Below are positions 56,193 through 61,022 of a stretch of DNA of 64,000 nucleotides, one piece after another; the first letter of the stretch is position 1; each line of letters starts with the position of its first letter. Source of the stretch: Escherichia coli 042 (lineage in GTDB: Bacteria > Pseudomonadota > Gammaproteobacteria > Enterobacterales > Enterobacteriaceae); assembly GCF_000027125.1 (NCBI RefSeq), contig NC_017626.1; one strand, given 5' to 3'. Below the pieces are notes generated by a model. That model did no database searches. It was not told where the DNA came from and saw only the letters and a list, made by a program, of their open reading frames with translations. A program made the position numbers and the translations under genes.

Positions 56193-57122
56193 ATGTCCAA
56201 AAAGATTGCCGTGATTGGCGAATGCATGATTGAGCTTTCCGAGAAAGGCGCGGACGTTAAGCGCGGTTTCGGCGGCGATACCCTGAACACCTCCGTCTAT
56301 ATCGCCCGTCAGGTCGATCCTGCGGCATTAACCGTTCATTACGTAACGGCGCTGGGAACGGACAGTTTTAGCCAGCAAATGCTGGACGCCTGGCACGGCG
56401 AGAACGTTGATACTTCCCTGACCCAACGGATGGAAAACCGTCTTCCGGGCCTTTACTACATTGAAACCGACAGCACCGGCGAACGTACGTTCTACTACTG
56501 GCGTAACGAAGCCGCCGCCAAATTCTGGCTGGAGAGCGAGCAGTCTGCGGCGATTTGCGAAGAGCTGGCGAATTTCGATTATCTCTACCTGAGCGGGATT
56601 AGCCTGGCGATCTTAAGCCCGACCAGCCGCGAGAAACTGCTTTCTTTGTTGCGCGAATGCCGCGCCAACGGCGGAAAAGTAATTTTCGACAATAACTATC
56701 GTCCGCGCCTGTGGGCCAGCAAAGAAGAGACACAGCAGGTGTACCAGCAAATGCTGGAATGCACGGATATCGCCTTCCTGACGCTGGACGACGAAGACGC
56801 GCTATGGGGTCAACAGCCGGTGGAAGACGTCATTGCGCGCACCCATAACGCGGGCGTGAAAGAAGTGGTGGTGAAACGCGGGGCGGATTCTTGCCTGGTG
56901 TCCATTGCTGGCGAAGGGTTAGTGGATGTTCCGGCGGTGAAACTGCCGAAAGAAAAAGTGATCGATACCACCGCAGCTGGCGACTCTTTCAGTGCCGGTT
57001 ATCTGGCGGTACGTTTGACGGGCGGCAGTGCGGAAAACGCGGCGAAACGCGGGCACCTGACCGCAAGTACCGTTATTCAGTATCGCGGCGCGATTATCCC
57101 GCGTGAGGCAATGCCGGAATAA
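56193..57122 (+). CDS. kdgK: 2-dehydro-3-deoxygluconokinase KdgK (309 aa)
   Basis: pfkB-family sugar kinase with C-terminal TAAGDSFSAGY motif; start set at MSKKIAVIGECMIEL. Confidence 0.9.
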   Translation: MSKKIAVIGECMIELSEKGADVKRGFGGDTLNTSVYIARQVDPAALTVHYVTALGTDSFSQQMLDAWHGENVDTSLTQRMENRLPGLYYIETDSTGERTFYYWRNEAAAKFWLESEQSAAICEELANFDYLYLSGISLAILSPTSREKLLSLLRECRANGGKVIFDNNYRPRLWASKEETQQVYQQMLECTDIAFLTLDDEDALWGQQPVEDVIARTHNAGVKEVVVKRGADSCLVSIAGEGLVDVPAVKLPKEKVIDTTAAGDSFSAGYLAVRLTGGSAENAAKRGHLTASTVIQYRGAIIPREAMPE

Positions 57123-57678
57123 TGGTTTTTGACGGAGAACGGGTAGATATTCGTTCTCCGTTAATCGCCTTGCAGGGGTGAACCGAACTATGCTGATAAT
57201 TTGAAGTAAACTGCTGACGCATATCATTCAAACTACGCGTAAATTTAAGCGGGTTCTCACCTTTAATTTCGACCGTGACGAAGACATTCCCATTGTTGTT
57301 AAAGAAGCCAAAATAATAGTCATGTTGATGACGACGATTGGTTTTAAATTGACGAAATGATAAATAGCAGCGGTTATCGTAGGTAATTAAAAAATCATTT
57401 TCTCCGTATTCGTTTATCATCTTATTTTTCAGGCTACCATCGAAGAGCACTGCATACTTATCTTTGTCAGCAAATAATTCGGCATCAGTTTCTCGGTTGA
57501 TCGTGTTGACGCTGATACCGAATTCTATTTTTACCTTGTCTTTATCGATATTATTTCTTGTGCTGACATACATATTATTGGCATCCCAGAGTAAGAGAAA
57601 GTTTTTGTTGCAGGAATAAAGACCTGTTAAGCAAAGAATGACTGTTAGCAAGAATAGTATGCGTTTTTTGTTACGCAT
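57094..57678 (-). CDS. Hypothetical secreted or lipoprotein-like protein (194 aa), islet gene 5
   Basis: N-terminal signal peptide MRNKKRILFLLTVILCLTGLYSC with RBS caggag; Asn/Lys/Asp-rich and AT-rich; the 3' end reads through the kdgK terminator and 29 bp into kdgK. Confidence 0.55.
   Translation of the reverse strand: MRNKKRILFLLTVILCLTGLYSCNKNFLLLWDANNMYVSTRNNIDKDKVKIEFGISVNTINRETDAELFADKDKYAVLFDGSLKNKMINEYGENDFLITYDNRCYLSFRQFKTNRRHQHDYYFGFFNNNGNVFVTVEIKGENPLKFTRSLNDMRQQFTSNYQHSSVHPCKAINGERISTRSPSKTIIPALPHAG
57132..57161 (+). terminator. Hairpin after kdgK (candidate terminator)
   Basis: acggagaacg ggtagatatt cgttctccgt, 10 nt after the kdgK stop. Confidence 0.5.
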
Positions 57679-57739
57679 TTATACTCCTGAAAATGCGTTG
57701 AGGTCGCAAATATAATTAAATAGTCTGACATAAATAAAA

Positions 57740-58060
57740 TTAATTCCCTATCAATAATACATCTGCGACTTTTCTTGGTCCTTCGTAGATCTCAAATGCC
57801 TCGTACTTAGTCATCCATTGTTCAGGGGCGGTATCGAAAAGGAACTGAACGCACCCCATTGAAACGATACGTCCATCGGTTACATTAGGTTTTTCCAATT
57901 CAAAAACAACGCTCCATGCATTATTTTGCCAGTCAGTTTTCTCCTCTGGAAACCTGGAGACGGGATAATATCTACCGATAGGAGGTGCGCTCCTTCTGCC
58001 ACCTTCATTTTCTGTAAGCCAAACAACCTTTACACGATACATATGTTTCCATTCATTCAT
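57740..58060 (-). CDS. Hypothetical protein resembling EF-Tu domain III (106 aa), islet gene 4
   Basis: VVWLTENEGGRRSAPPIGRYYP and C-terminal FEIYEGPRKVADVLL align with EF-Tu domain III ([36 protein letters not shown]); starts 3 nt after the gene 3 stop. Confidence 0.6.
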   Translation of the reverse strand: MNEWKHMYRVKVVWLTENEGGRRSAPPIGRYYPVSRFPEEKTDWQNNAWSVVFELEKPNVTDGRIVSMGCVQFLFDTAPEQWMTKYEAFEIYEGPRKVADVLLIGN

Positions 58061-58063
58061 TAA

Positions 58064-58543
58064 TTAAATTAAGTGTGAATTATATAATATTGCCACCCCA
58101 TGCGATCTTTCCCATTTTAGTCCATCAACTAATAATGATAGAAAAGAATACTGGAAGCTTATATTTTTAATCACTTCTATTTTTTCATCATCTAATGACA
58201 AGATTACCCACCCCCCGTAATTTTTGCTAACCAGGTTGTTAATAAATTTAATTATAGGATTGGTTGAAATATCCTTTCCTTTATTCACAGCCATTTCCAG
58301 GTCATCGACTAAAGAACCATTGAAGTTGTAAACATGATATTCATTAAAGTCTATGTGCTCATCTAAAGGTGGGCCATAAGTAATCGGTAGATTGCATCTC
58401 TGCAAAAGATGATGATTACACCAGGCGTATACCGGAGGGTCGCGATGAAAGGTTTCCCCACCCCAGTGAACCATAACCTCTTGTAGATCTAGTTCCTCTG
58501 GAGCGAATCGTGTAGGGAGTAAAATATCCAAGTGAAAATCCAT
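58064..58543 (-). CDS. Hypothetical protein (159 aa), islet gene 3
   Basis: AT-rich ORF with no motif I recognise; translationally coupled to gene 4. Confidence 0.55.
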   Translation of the reverse strand: MDFHLDILLPTRFAPEELDLQEVMVHWGGETFHRDPPVYAWCNHHLLQRCNLPITYGPPLDEHIDFNEYHVYNFNGSLVDDLEMAVNKGKDISTNPIIKFINNLVSKNYGGWVILSLDDEKIEVIKNISFQYSFLSLLVDGLKWERSHGVAILYNSHLI

Positions 58544-58642
58544 AGCCTATCCTAAATTTGGCACCCATAACATAAACTGTGTAAGAATCAACGACTGCCC
58601 CCCCAAAAATGGGAAAATTTACTTATTATGCAAAGTTACTTA

Positions 58643-58897
58643 TTAAGAAGCCCATTCCTCATTTTTTGGCAAATAGCCCTTTCGCCAACAGGTCAGAATC
58701 TTAAAACTCGCTCGCAAATAAAATTTATTAGCCGAATCGTTTTTAACCATTCTGACTAATGTCATCTCACCCGTTCTTTTATCTATCACGAACTCGCCGT
58801 AATCAGATCTACAATAGTCAGAAGATGTAGGTCCAAATTCATATTTTACTACTTTATCAGTTTCTTCAATTTTCAATATTTCTATATGATAGGCCAT
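58643..58897 (-). CDS. Hypothetical small protein (84 aa), islet gene 2
   Basis: Start codon overlaps the stop of gene 1 by one nucleotide (TAATG); no recognised motif. Confidence 0.5.
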   Translation of the reverse strand: MAYHIEILKIEETDKVVKYEFGPTSSDYCRSDYGEFVIDKRTGEMTLVRMVKNDSANKFYLRASFKILTCWRKGYLPKNEEWAS

Positions 58898-59322
58898 TAT
58901 TTAACACCATCTATTGCCTGGCATCGTATACAGCTAAAACCAGTAGCTAAAATCTCAACATAACTATCATAACCTGCTATAATATAATGTTTTAACTTTA
59001 ACCGTTTTTTAGGGTCATATAATCTCTCTTTTTCTTCAAGCGGTACAGAATTCATTACTTGATATATACCGGAGTCCAGATTTTCACCATCAACCTTCTT
59101 AATAACAATATTGTTATAGTTGGCTTCATGAAAATTGACGGTAGCACACTTAACTTCAGCAACTGTAGTGAAGACCAGTTCAATTTGAACATAATCTTTC
59201 TCTGTTGATATTAACTCCAGAGCATCTACTTTAATGTTGACGCCATCAGACTCTGTATATGTTAAAGATAAATAAGTTGTGGAAATCCTGAATCCAATCG
59301 ATTGTGATTTTAACACAAGCAT
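58897..59322 (-). CDS. Hypothetical protein (141 aa), islet gene 1
   Basis: Start at the second ATG (MLVLKSQSIG), which has AAGGAG 7 nt upstream; C-terminal CIRC (CxxC); AT-rich. Confidence 0.55.
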   Translation of the reverse strand: MLVLKSQSIGFRISTTYLSLTYTESDGVNIKVDALELISTEKDYVQIELVFTTVAEVKCATVNFHEANYNNIVIKKVDGENLDSGIYQVMNSVPLEEKERLYDPKKRLKLKHYIIAGYDSYVEILATGFSCIRCQAIDGVK

Positions 59323-59525
59323 AAACTCACTCCTTCCAGTAGGCACAGGTATAATTTATTCAGCTAATAAATAATTAAACCCACTCTACGGTAAGTTTAT
59401 TTTAATAATGAATGGTTATCTGCGCGCTACCGCCGTGCCCGGAAAAATATCTGCGGTTATATCACGGTAACTAATTTATTACCGTTAATCCCGGCAGCGC
59501 AGAAGAAACGCTGCCGGGTTATTTA

Positions 59526-61022
59526 TTACTGTGCGGGGGGAATATCCGTCACTTCAGGATGTACGTCATCCGTGGCGACAGAGGTGGTCGCAGCGGCGGT
59601 AGATGGGGTCATGATTTGATCCCAGGCCGCCTGCAACGCTTTCATGTTAAATTCCGGCTCGCCTTTCGGCTGCAGAAGTATTAACGCCATATCATTCGAC
59701 AACTGCTGACGCAGATCCTGATTTAACATCTCCACCGTCAGGCTGTTAAGGAAGTCCTGGCGCAGTTTCTGATATTGCTCCGGCGCGATATCAACGACCT
59801 GATTTTGCAACGAACGCATCCGCTGACCCATCAGAATATCGGTATCAGCTCGCGCATAGGCGGCAAACAGTTTCTGCAGCTCCAGTTTCTTTTGCGCCAC
59901 TAACGCATTGAACTCTTCTTCCGGCAGACCTTTATCGCGAACCTTCGCCAGTTCACGCGCCACCAGATTAAGGTTGCTGCTCAGCTTGTCGTTTGGTGAT
60001 TCGATGTTAATGGCACACTGCGCACGCAGATACAGCACACGACAGTCAAATCCAAGACCGATATCTTTGCTGTTACTGGCGCTTAACGCTTGCTGAACAT
60101 GCCAGAACAGCGCCTCACGGGCCAGGTCCGCACGCCAGTAGCGCAGCAGTGCGGCTGATTCACGAATCGGCTGCCACGGCGTATCCCACATGATTGATAA
60201 CCGGTCCTGACGCACCGCGTCAGTCATAATACTCACCGCTTCCGCACGCAGCGGAGAAAGCGTCGGCACCGGAGCCGGTGTTTCACGTTTGCCTTTCAGT
60301 TCGCCAAACGTTTTATTGATTTGGTCGACGACCGAGCGCGCATCCACGTTTCCCACCACCAGCAGCGTCATTGCATCCGGGGTATACCATTTCTGATAGA
60401 AATCTTTAATCTTTTCCGCTTCAACGGGTTGTTTCAGCGGATCGGCAGGATCGTGACCTAACAAGGTTGATCCTTTCAGACGATAGCGCCACCAGCCCTC
60501 TTTAGTATCGGCAGGCCAGGTTGCCACCATGTCCTGACTTTGCAGCGCGTGGTTGATGGTTTCTGGCGTGATAGTCAGTTTGCCAGTGGCATTTGCCAGA
60601 TAAGAGAGCGCTTCTTTCAGCAAGTCGTTACGGTTATTGGGCAAACTCAGATTAAACAGCGTGGTGTCATAAGAGACAATTACCGGCGGCATCGGGCGTT
60701 TAGGGTCGATCCCCTGCTGCCACAATGAACGCGCCTGTGCTGCTTCAAGGCCACCGCTTTGCGTTAACGCAATACGAGGGATGGCGTGGCTGTAACCGCT
60801 CTGTTGTGTACTTTCGGCGAGCGAACCGGTATTAACCAGCAGGCGAATTTCAACACGATCGCTGGGACGCTGGGGTGTGGTCAGCACTTGCCACTGTAAA
60901 CCGTTGGAAAGCGTCCCCTGTTGCCATGCTGGATCAGGCTGGAGCGCATCTGCCTGCACATAGCCAGCAGTGGCCATCATCAGCAAACCGCCCGCTAAAA
61001 GTCGAATTTTTGTGCCCTGCAT
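59526..61022 (-). CDS. yhjJ: Periplasmic M16-family peptidase-like protein YhjJ (498 aa)
   Basis: Signal peptide MQGTKIRLLAGGLLMMATAGYVQA; length and position match yhjJ. Confidence 0.85.
   Translation of the reverse strand: MQGTKIRLLAGGLLMMATAGYVQADALQPDPAWQQGTLSNGLQWQVLTTPQRPSDRVEIRLLVNTGSLAESTQQSGYSHAIPRIALTQSGGLEAAQARSLWQQGIDPKRPMPPVIVSYDTTLFNLSLPNNRNDLLKEALSYLANATGKLTITPETINHALQSQDMVATWPADTKEGWWRYRLKGSTLLGHDPADPLKQPVEAEKIKDFYQKWYTPDAMTLLVVGNVDARSVVDQINKTFGELKGKRETPAPVPTLSPLRAEAVSIMTDAVRQDRLSIMWDTPWQPIRESAALLRYWRADLAREALFWHVQQALSASNSKDIGLGFDCRVLYLRAQCAINIESPNDKLSSNLNLVARELAKVRDKGLPEEEFNALVAQKKLELQKLFAAYARADTDILMGQRMRSLQNQVVDIAPEQYQKLRQDFLNSLTVEMLNQDLRQQLSNDMALILLQPKGEPEFNMKALQAAWDQIMTPSTAAATTSVATDDVHPEVTDIPPAQ

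Follow-up and report, generated by a model that had tools for sequence, protein, structure and literature searches.

A free-standing EF-Tu domain III-like protein from an Escherichia coli islet as a candidate orphan immunity protein for a Rhs-linked mini-ADP-ribosyltransferase toxin

We analysed a 64,000-nucleotide stretch of the genome of Escherichia coli 042 (contig NC_017626.1; the whole stretch is called the window below) and, within it, a small gene whose product resembles domain III, the C-terminal β-barrel, of elongation factor EF-Tu. We consider it very likely that this gene, the D3-like gene, is an orphan immunity gene of an undescribed effector–immunity pair, composed of a Rhs mini-ADP-ribosyltransferase (mini-ART) toxin and an EF-Tu-domain-III-like protein. 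An immunity role had been offered as a speculation in the original prediction, which was made from the letters of this DNA; it is supported by the adjacency of D3-like genes to genes for one toxin domain in 11 independent loci (L012, L014, L015, L016, L017, L022, L024, L025, L028, L030 and L034), which span gamma- and alphaproteobacteria and uncultured high-GC bacteria. The gene and its product lie in the window as follows.

57740–58060, minus strand: D3-like open reading frame (ORF) of 106 aa, as given in the ORF list
57740..58042, minus strand: EF-Tu domain-III-like protein of 100 aa, counted from M7; proposed orphan immunity protein against a Rhs mini-ADP-ribosyltransferase toxin

The second methionine of the ORF (M7, position 58042) is the start in all homologues and in RefSeq (WP_000286426.1), and the protein is for this reason probably 100 aa long. 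It is small and acidic (isoelectric point, pI, 5.1) and consists of the barrel alone; the G domain and domain II are absent, so that it is not a translational GTPase proper. The gene was found in 170 of 5426 complete E. coli genomes, always as one chromosomal copy; the ORF is intact in all 170, and in 168 the identity is 99% or higher. Comparison of the window with the 94%-identical allele of E. coli GF4-3 gave a ratio of nonsynonymous to synonymous substitution rates (dN/dS) of 0.22, which, with small counts (only 17 substitutions), suggests purifying selection.

Pairing of the D3-like family with a Rhs toxin domain

An exhaustive profile search for relatives of the D3-like protein returned 479 cluster representatives at E≤0.001, that is, a family of ~480 clusters at 50% identity which extends from Enterobacterales to Bacteroides, Firmicutes and Planctomycetes; a word-indexed search recovered no more than 18 close relatives, from Enterobacterales. 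Nearly all members are stand-alone proteins of 90–130 aa, with few fusions, and their names in the databases are either 'hypothetical' or an automatic label for the EF-Tu C-terminal domain.

We inspected the gene neighbourhoods of the family in a sample of about 20 loci, which is not a census. A scan of one genome per species with a close alignment gave 12 loci, including the E. coli islet itself (L011). In 6 of the other 11, the ORF that lies 4–30 bp upstream of the D3-like gene is a Rhs C-terminus with one common domain of ~107 aa. Past a PxxxxDPxGL boundary, the consensus of this domain reads (M)VLYRGMS..EY..L...G.W..G.GTMEGKWFAESY.DAVTWGNKMGHGG..F.VVQI.VPD.IA..MH.D.HLDGIGPARYA. The arrangement is seen most completely in Photorhabdus luminescens DSM 3368 (L016), where a full-length Rhs protein of 1411 aa ends in DPLGL and the toxin domain, and the D3-like gene follows 30 bp on. 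In Yersinia nurmii, Affinibrenneria salicis, P. heterorhabditis, Morganella morganii and Methylobacterium indicum, the toxin domain belongs to an orphan Rhs C-terminus that immediately precedes the D3-like gene, the distance in Yersinia being 18 bp. The pairing is also found in Citrobacter werkmanii (L028), whose D3-like protein is the closest relative outside E. coli (70% identity), and in four metagenomic contigs that encode distant D3-like members. On these contigs the hidden Markov model (HMM) of the toxin matched with E values of 5e-13, 1.5e-25, 3e-43 and 5.5e-44; the toxin and D3-like genes overlap by 4 bp in three of them and are separated by a 4-bp gap in the fourth (L034). The pairing holds even where the D3-like member is only ~30–40% identical to the query, and a DPxGL motif precedes the toxin domain in all Rhs-linked loci.

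D3-like genes are also located together with recognised immunity genes. In Serratia marcescens, the D3-like gene sits in an orphan array downstream of a PAAR-Rhs-ribonuclease/Barstar pair, with Rhs C-terminal fragments on its flanks; in Kosakonia, it belongs to an array of small genes that includes one for a SMI1_KNR4 (SUKH) protein; and in E. coli GF4-3 it shares an islet with a TriTu gene (see below). No link to translation genes was found in any of the loci examined.

Several observations on individual loci and proteins can be added. In the metagenomic locus L030 (JGI metagenome, 2208–2806), the toxin is a stand-alone gene of 105 aa with its own start, which lies beside a transposase and upstream of Rhs-like genes. 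The rhs array of C. werkmanii (CP019986.1, 1–8937) begins with a main PAAR-like Rhs (1487 aa) and a 177-aa gene, continues with an orphan Rhs carrying a Scabin/pertussis-like ART and a 135-aa gene, and then contains an orphan mini-ART remnant (with a stop codon in its core) and the D3-like gene; the array is completed by a Tox-HNH-EHHH fragment and a phage-type integrase. This array is a plausible model of the donor of the E. coli cassette described below. The L011 contig (JAIJJM010000440.1, 'MAG: Collinsella sp.', where MAG stands for metagenome-assembled genome) is 2.76 kb long and identical in protein sequence (100%) to the E. coli islet together with the end of kdgK; almost certainly, this is an E. 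coli contig that was mis-binned into the genome of a member of the Actinobacteria. Fusion members include P0059 (318 aa), P0133, P0054, P0087, P0135, P0153 and P0021. P0059 contains two D3-like domains in tandem and a C-terminal domain, and P0135 (483 aa) has an uncharacterised N-terminal region of 390 aa, and further fusions join a D3-like domain to an uncharacterised C-terminal extension; a Pfam scan of the fusion proteins gave no match in the extra regions.

The partner toxin is predicted to have an ADP-ribosyltransferase fold

The toxin domain belongs to no Pfam family, its sole match being a weak one to Ntox47 at the DPxGL boundary, and it has no sequence relative in the PDB. Only 18 homologues were found in the databases, all named 'hypothetical'. 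The confident AlphaFold2 model of the domain (predicted local distance difference test score, pLDDT, 89.3) adopts an ADP-ribosyltransferase (ART) fold, with TreTu, Tpt1, CC0527, diphtheria toxin, RES toxins, TreX, RhsP2 and Tne2 as structural neighbours; TreTu, Tpt1 and CC0527 are among the nearest. TreTu, from Salmonella, ADP-ribosylates EF-Tu at D21; it is described as a mini-ART that has an unusual R6/H31/W68 site and E12 and resembles Tpt1 and CC0527 (PMC9825190). It docks on the G domain of EF-Tu and not on domain III (PMC9825190). The partner toxin is, like TreTu, a predicted Rhs C-terminal mini-ART of ~110 aa without a recognisable sequence family, and its Arg5, on strand 1, and near-invariant Glu11 are spaced as are R6 and E12 of TreTu; counterparts of H31 and W68 were not located. 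In the structure comparison, however, the likeness to TreTu was no better than that to Tpt1, diphtheria toxin or RES toxins. We considered the toxin as a sequence relative of TreTu, and HMMER detected no similarity between the two. Tre23 (Photorhabdus ART-HYD1) was rejected as its identity: Tre23 is an ART of the H-Y clade and has a Pfam family, and the toxin has none.

The immunity protein of TreTu, TriTu, folds into a flat sheet of five strands and two helices (PMC9825190; PDB 7ZHL/7ZHM), in contrast to the predicted barrel of the D3-like protein, and PDB sequence searches with the D3-like protein and its family profiles did not retrieve it. Other known pairs share the general plan: Tre1/Tri1, Tre23/Tri23, TreX/TriX, RhsP2/RhsI2 and Tne2/Tni2 are likewise composed of a Rhs- or type VI secretion system (T6SS)-linked ART-fold toxin and a small, specific neutraliser encoded downstream. 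The sequence families of the toxins of the Tre1, Tre23, TreX, RhsP2 and Tne2 pairs all differ from that of the partner toxin (Tre23 has an H-Y triad, as opposed to the R-type strand 1 of the partner toxin), and an EF-Tu-like fold is reported for none of their immunity proteins.

Homology of the D3-like protein to EF-Tu domain III

The relationship to EF-Tu does not reach significance when single sequences are compared. The similarity of the D3-like protein to E. coli EF-Tu was not significant in BLASTP (26 aa around EGGR, E 0.073 in a single comparison); Pfam gave no match for the protein even at E≤10, and so none to GTP_EFTU_D3 (PF03143); and PDB sequence searches with the protein and the family profiles yielded nothing significant, the best EF-Tu being the mitochondrial one (E 0.5; hmmsearch, family profile). 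The profile check suggested with the original prediction was thus negative for Pfam on the single protein, whereas it was positive when the alignment of the family was used. Indeed, hhalign of the 140-member family alignment against EF-Tu domain III (a small 4-sequence alignment entered by hand and not drawn from a database, as was the EF-Tu sequence used for BLASTP) gave Prob 83.7% and E 8e-6 over 87 columns, with 24% identity and the whole domain covered. It pairs TENEGGRRSAPP with an 11-residue stretch of EF-Tu and FEIYEGPRKVADV with a 13-residue one, which reproduces both motif pairings that had first suggested the likeness, and it sets a Lys of the D3-like protein opposite EF-Tu Thr382, in agreement with the earlier reading of that position. 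Some members of the family are closer to the Pfam model: GTP_EFTU_D3 was matched at E≤0.1 by 5 of the 140 and at E≤0.001 by 1 of the 140 (best 3.2e-4).

The AlphaFold2 model of the D3-like protein, built with 14 homologues, is confident and shows an all-beta barrel (pLDDT 86.6; predicted template modelling score, pTM, 0.81). The barrel can be superposed on domain III of translational GTPases, that of EF-Tu among them, as had been expected. A Foldseek search of AFDB50 returned relatives of ~100 aa, several of which carry the automatic name 'Translation elongation factor EFTu/EF1A C-terminal domain-containing protein'. The family alignment, the model and the Pfam matches of relatives all bear out the proposed likeness, and we conclude that, by profile and predicted fold, the D3-like protein is a free-standing homologue of EF-Tu domain III.

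The identity of the protein to domain III of bacterial EF-Tu is 21–23%, versus 4–14% to other translational GTPases, and it retains the bacterial-specific EGGR loop and an F-x-I-x-EG-x-R-x-V motif. To our knowledge, EF1A has no EGGR motif. That the protein is more similar to bacterial EF-Tu than to other GTPases and contains EGGR points to bacterial EF-Tu, and not to another GTPase, as the source of the family. In the ternary complex, the EGGR and R-E-G-x-R-x loops of EF-Tu domain III touch the T-stem of the tRNA; the second of these loops contains Thr382, the site phosphorylated by Doc.

The D3-like family nevertheless differs from EF-Tu domain III (PF03143) in several respects. It is free-standing, without a G domain or domain II, and falls below the Pfam thresholds; it has an additional insertion of 9 residues, missing from EF-Tu, which ends in the family signature W-x-x-x-AWSV; Thr382 is replaced by Lys or Arg; and its genomic setting is that of toxin and immunity genes, not of translation. 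The toxin-paired D3-like protein of L030 is without the EGGR motif.

The islet in E. coli 042 and its versions in other strains

In the window, the D3-like gene is part of an islet with the following features.

57116..59524, minus strand: low-GC islet of five small genes, 2.4 kb, which replaces the K-12 kdgK–yhjJ spacer
57711..58560, minus strand: cassette of the D3-like and 159-aa genes, as delimited by a blastn comparison of the islet with E. coli N3 and GF4-3
57094..57678, minus strand: basic protein of 194 aa whose N-terminus (…LTGLYSC) is lipoprotein-like; no family match
58064..58543, minus strand: acidic ORFan of 159 aa, immediately upstream of the D3-like gene
58643..58897, minus strand: 84-aa hypothetical gene, kept in the GF4-3 and N3 versions; no family match
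58897..59346, minus strand: 149-aa hypothetical gene (141 aa from the RefSeq start), missing from the GF4-3 version; no family match

The islet lies between the convergent genes kdgK (which ends at 57122) and yhjJ (59526–61022). Homology to K-12 ends at 57115 and resumes at 59525, with 2409 bp in place of a spacer of 101 bp, and the GC content is 33–41%, versus ~52–58% in the flanks. Of the 5426 complete genomes, 169 (~3%) contain the islet in full. The stop of the 149-aa gene overlaps the start of the 84-aa gene. All five genes encode hypothetical proteins in RefSeq; searches of Pfam, NCBIfam, PADLOC and PHROGs with the D3-like protein and its four islet neighbours gave nothing significant, and tblastn with the four other islet proteins against all retrieved rhs and immunity loci gave nothing.

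Two other versions of the islet were compared with the window. The order in GF4-3 is the 84-aa gene, a TriTu homologue, the 159-aa gene, the D3-like gene and the lipoprotein-like gene, the protein identities to the window being 90% (159-aa), 92% (D3-like) and 85% (194-aa). The TriTu homologue (L031, 2213–2461), two genes upstream of the D3-like gene, is full-length; its match to PDB 7zhm_C has an E value of 1e-25, and the annotation pipeline PGAP names it 'immunity protein TriTu family'. In the N3 version, the 149-aa and 84-aa genes are followed by a TriTu gene truncated to 57 aa (L032, 4001–4174), an unrelated gene of 163 aa and, lastly, the 194-aa gene; the 159-aa and D3-like genes are missing from it together, as one cassette of 850 bp whose place is taken by the truncated TriTu gene and the 163-aa gene (window 57711–58560 versus L032 4014–4806). 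The breakpoint of the cassette at ~58560 is the position of the TriTu gene in GF4-3. TriTu-like genes were found in 3 of the 5426 genomes, always in this islet and with no TreTu toxin nearby. As judged by this homology, TriTu, an experimentally validated immunity family directed against an ART toxin that targets EF-Tu, shares the islet in a sister version and is likewise without its toxin.

The islet is a mosaic array; we propose that this small array was acquired and consists of orphan immunity genes. Orphan immunity genes are kept for defence in rhs and cdi loci and in the acquired interbacterial defence islands of gut Bacteroidales. The islet resembles such arrays in being small, low in GC, mosaic, toxin-less and patchy in distribution, and homologues of the D3-like gene also sit in rhs orphan arrays. 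It differs from them in that only one of its five genes in the window is tied to a toxin, that integrase and mobility genes are absent, and that housekeeping genes stand on both sides.

The 194-aa gene is common to all three versions (85–95% amino acid identity; dN/dS 0.40, from small counts). Its product has the N-terminus MRNKKRILFLLTVILCLTGLYSC and a pI of 9.3, and the last 29 bp of the gene overlap the 3′ end of kdgK; the GF4-3 allele encodes 177 aa with a different C-terminus. This protein could conceivably be a periplasmic immunity protein.

The D3-like ORF lies on the same strand as the 159-aa ORF and begins 3 nt (21 nt if counted from M7) past its stop. The 159-aa protein is strongly acidic (pI 5.07, net charge −10.7), as immunity proteins are, and the dN/dS of its gene, between the window and GF4-3, is 0.35 (small counts), similar to that of its neighbours. 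Only four homologues turned up in the databases, each of them from this E. coli islet. An apparent 127-aa 'homologue' comes from split genes in the E. coli-like assembly L023 (GCA_019430965.1), where dctA, yhjJ, kdgK, pdeH and yhjG are all split as well and which looks like a frameshift-rich assembly of low quality. No significant match to the 159-aa protein was found in Pfam, NCBIfam, PADLOC or PHROGs, and in the loci examined its gene was never beside D3-like genes in other genera. It is probably another orphan immunity gene.

Proposed function and alternative explanations

According to our proposal, the cognate toxin of the D3-like protein would be the 107-aa ART-fold domain found at Rhs C-termini after the DPxGL cleavage motif, and type VI secretion would typically deliver its Rhs carriers. 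We infer, by analogy with TriTu/TreTu, Tri23 and RhsI2, that the D3-like protein may bind the toxin 1:1 and block either the active site or the surface that docks on the target, thereby neutralising it. The E. coli strain would retain the immunity gene alone, in a horizontally acquired orphan array between kdgK and yhjJ, where its expression may protect the cell against toxin injected by competing Enterobacterales.

Several results weigh against this proposal. About half of the non-E. coli loci examined have no toxin (among them L002, L008, L013, L018–L021, L026 and L033); these toxin-less loci include Rhs arrays (Burkholderia L018, Brenneria L013), an immunity-type islet (Burkholderia L019) and isolated genes (L020, L021, L026 and L033). 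The 64-kb window itself contains neither the toxin domain (best HMM match E 1.3) nor a Rhs gene, and therefore the argument for immunity rests on the homologues; a DNA-level search for the toxin in E. coli matched the conserved Rhs core alone. Within the islet, no promoter or terminator signal rose above the shuffled background. Finally, the 159-aa and D3-like genes are gained and lost together in E. coli, a co-inheritance that the immunity model leaves unexplained; the simplest view is that both arrived as adjacent immunity genes of one donor array.

The last point, together with the same-strand arrangement of the two genes 3–21 nt apart, is what speaks for the proposal of the original prediction, a two-gene toxin–antitoxin or defence module with a toxic effector of 159 aa and its cognate antidote of 106 aa. 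We regard such a module as very unlikely. The 159-aa protein has no homologue beyond the islet, has no family match, is very acidic, did not match the toxin HMM (E 9) and is encoded by a gene under constraint like that of its neighbours; because of these features, it is, on comparative grounds, not a conserved partner of the D3-like family, which has another and well-conserved one in the Rhs ART-fold domain. The pair is kept only within E. coli and so does not form a conserved two-gene module. It is somewhat less improbable, although still unlikely, that the islet is the leftover of a rhs orphan array and that the D3-like gene has no function in E. coli. The window without toxin or rhs gene, the lack of promoter signals and the truncated TriTu neighbour in N3 are consistent with decay, and the near-clonal identity of the gene among genomes says little on selection; the ORF is, however, intact in all 170 genomes, its dN/dS is low against the GF4-3 allele, and, as a matter of general knowledge, orphan immunity genes are maintained for defence. 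A role as an accessory factor of translation, in which a free domain III would bind tRNA, EF-Ts or the ribosome and modulate elongation, could be imagined from the homology to EF-Tu and from the retention of both tRNA-facing loops. The sporadic, horizontal distribution of the family in low-GC islets and rhs arrays, its consistent coupling to a toxin domain and the absence of linkage to translation genes in the loci examined make this the least credible of the explanations, to which we give hardly any weight.

A further possibility concerns the origin of the immunity function. The D3-like protein may go back to the 3′ part of a tuf gene, captured as a fragment that codes for domain III, and act by target mimicry, as a high-affinity decoy that out-competes EF-Tu or EF-Tu·aminoacyl-tRNA for an ART toxin; the toxin would recognise or modify EF-Tu by way of domain III or of the face that binds aminoacyl-tRNA. 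The protein is nearest to domain III of bacterial EF-Tu and retains the EGGR loop and the F-x-I-x-EG-x-R-x-V motif, both of which fit such an origin. Several T6SS toxins and toxins of contact-dependent inhibition (CDI) systems bind EF-Tu, which contact-dependent toxins use repeatedly as a target or cofactor. The structural neighbours of the partner toxin include TreTu, an EF-Tu-modifying enzyme (PMC9825190), whose R6 and E12 are matched by R5 and E11 of the toxin in strand 1 and spacing. On the other hand, TreTu docks on the G domain to modify D21, and its own immunity protein, TriTu, has an unrelated fold (PMC9825190). The likeness of the toxin to TreTu is no better than that to other ARTs in structure and is undetectable in sequence, and EGGR is lost in the toxin-paired member from L030. 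We thus treat target mimicry as a tentative idea, with the odds against it, to be set beside the orphan immunity proposal.

Significance

The kind of system described here, a Rhs toxin with its immunity protein and an islet of orphan immunity genes, is known; what appear to be new are the two families and the EF-Tu ancestry of one of them. A full-text search of the literature found no EF-Tu-domain-like immunity protein and no signature peptides of either family, the 2012 census of polymorphic toxins does not mention an EF-Tu-like immunity domain, and Pfam, NCBIfam, PADLOC and PHROG contain no model for the toxin or for the D3-like protein. The 107-aa ART-fold Rhs toxin domain and the D3-like immunity family would thus constitute an effector–immunity pair not annotated before, and five ORFan genes of ~3% of E. 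coli genomes gain a testable role, namely a defence acquired against attack through the T6SS. A concrete clue to what the toxin targets comes from the EF-Tu ancestry of the putative immunity protein. Should target mimicry prove true, it would represent interbacterial immunity through mimicry of a target domain, a new evolutionary route to immunity, and it predicts that the partner mini-ART family would be a second, independent EF-Tu-directed ART.

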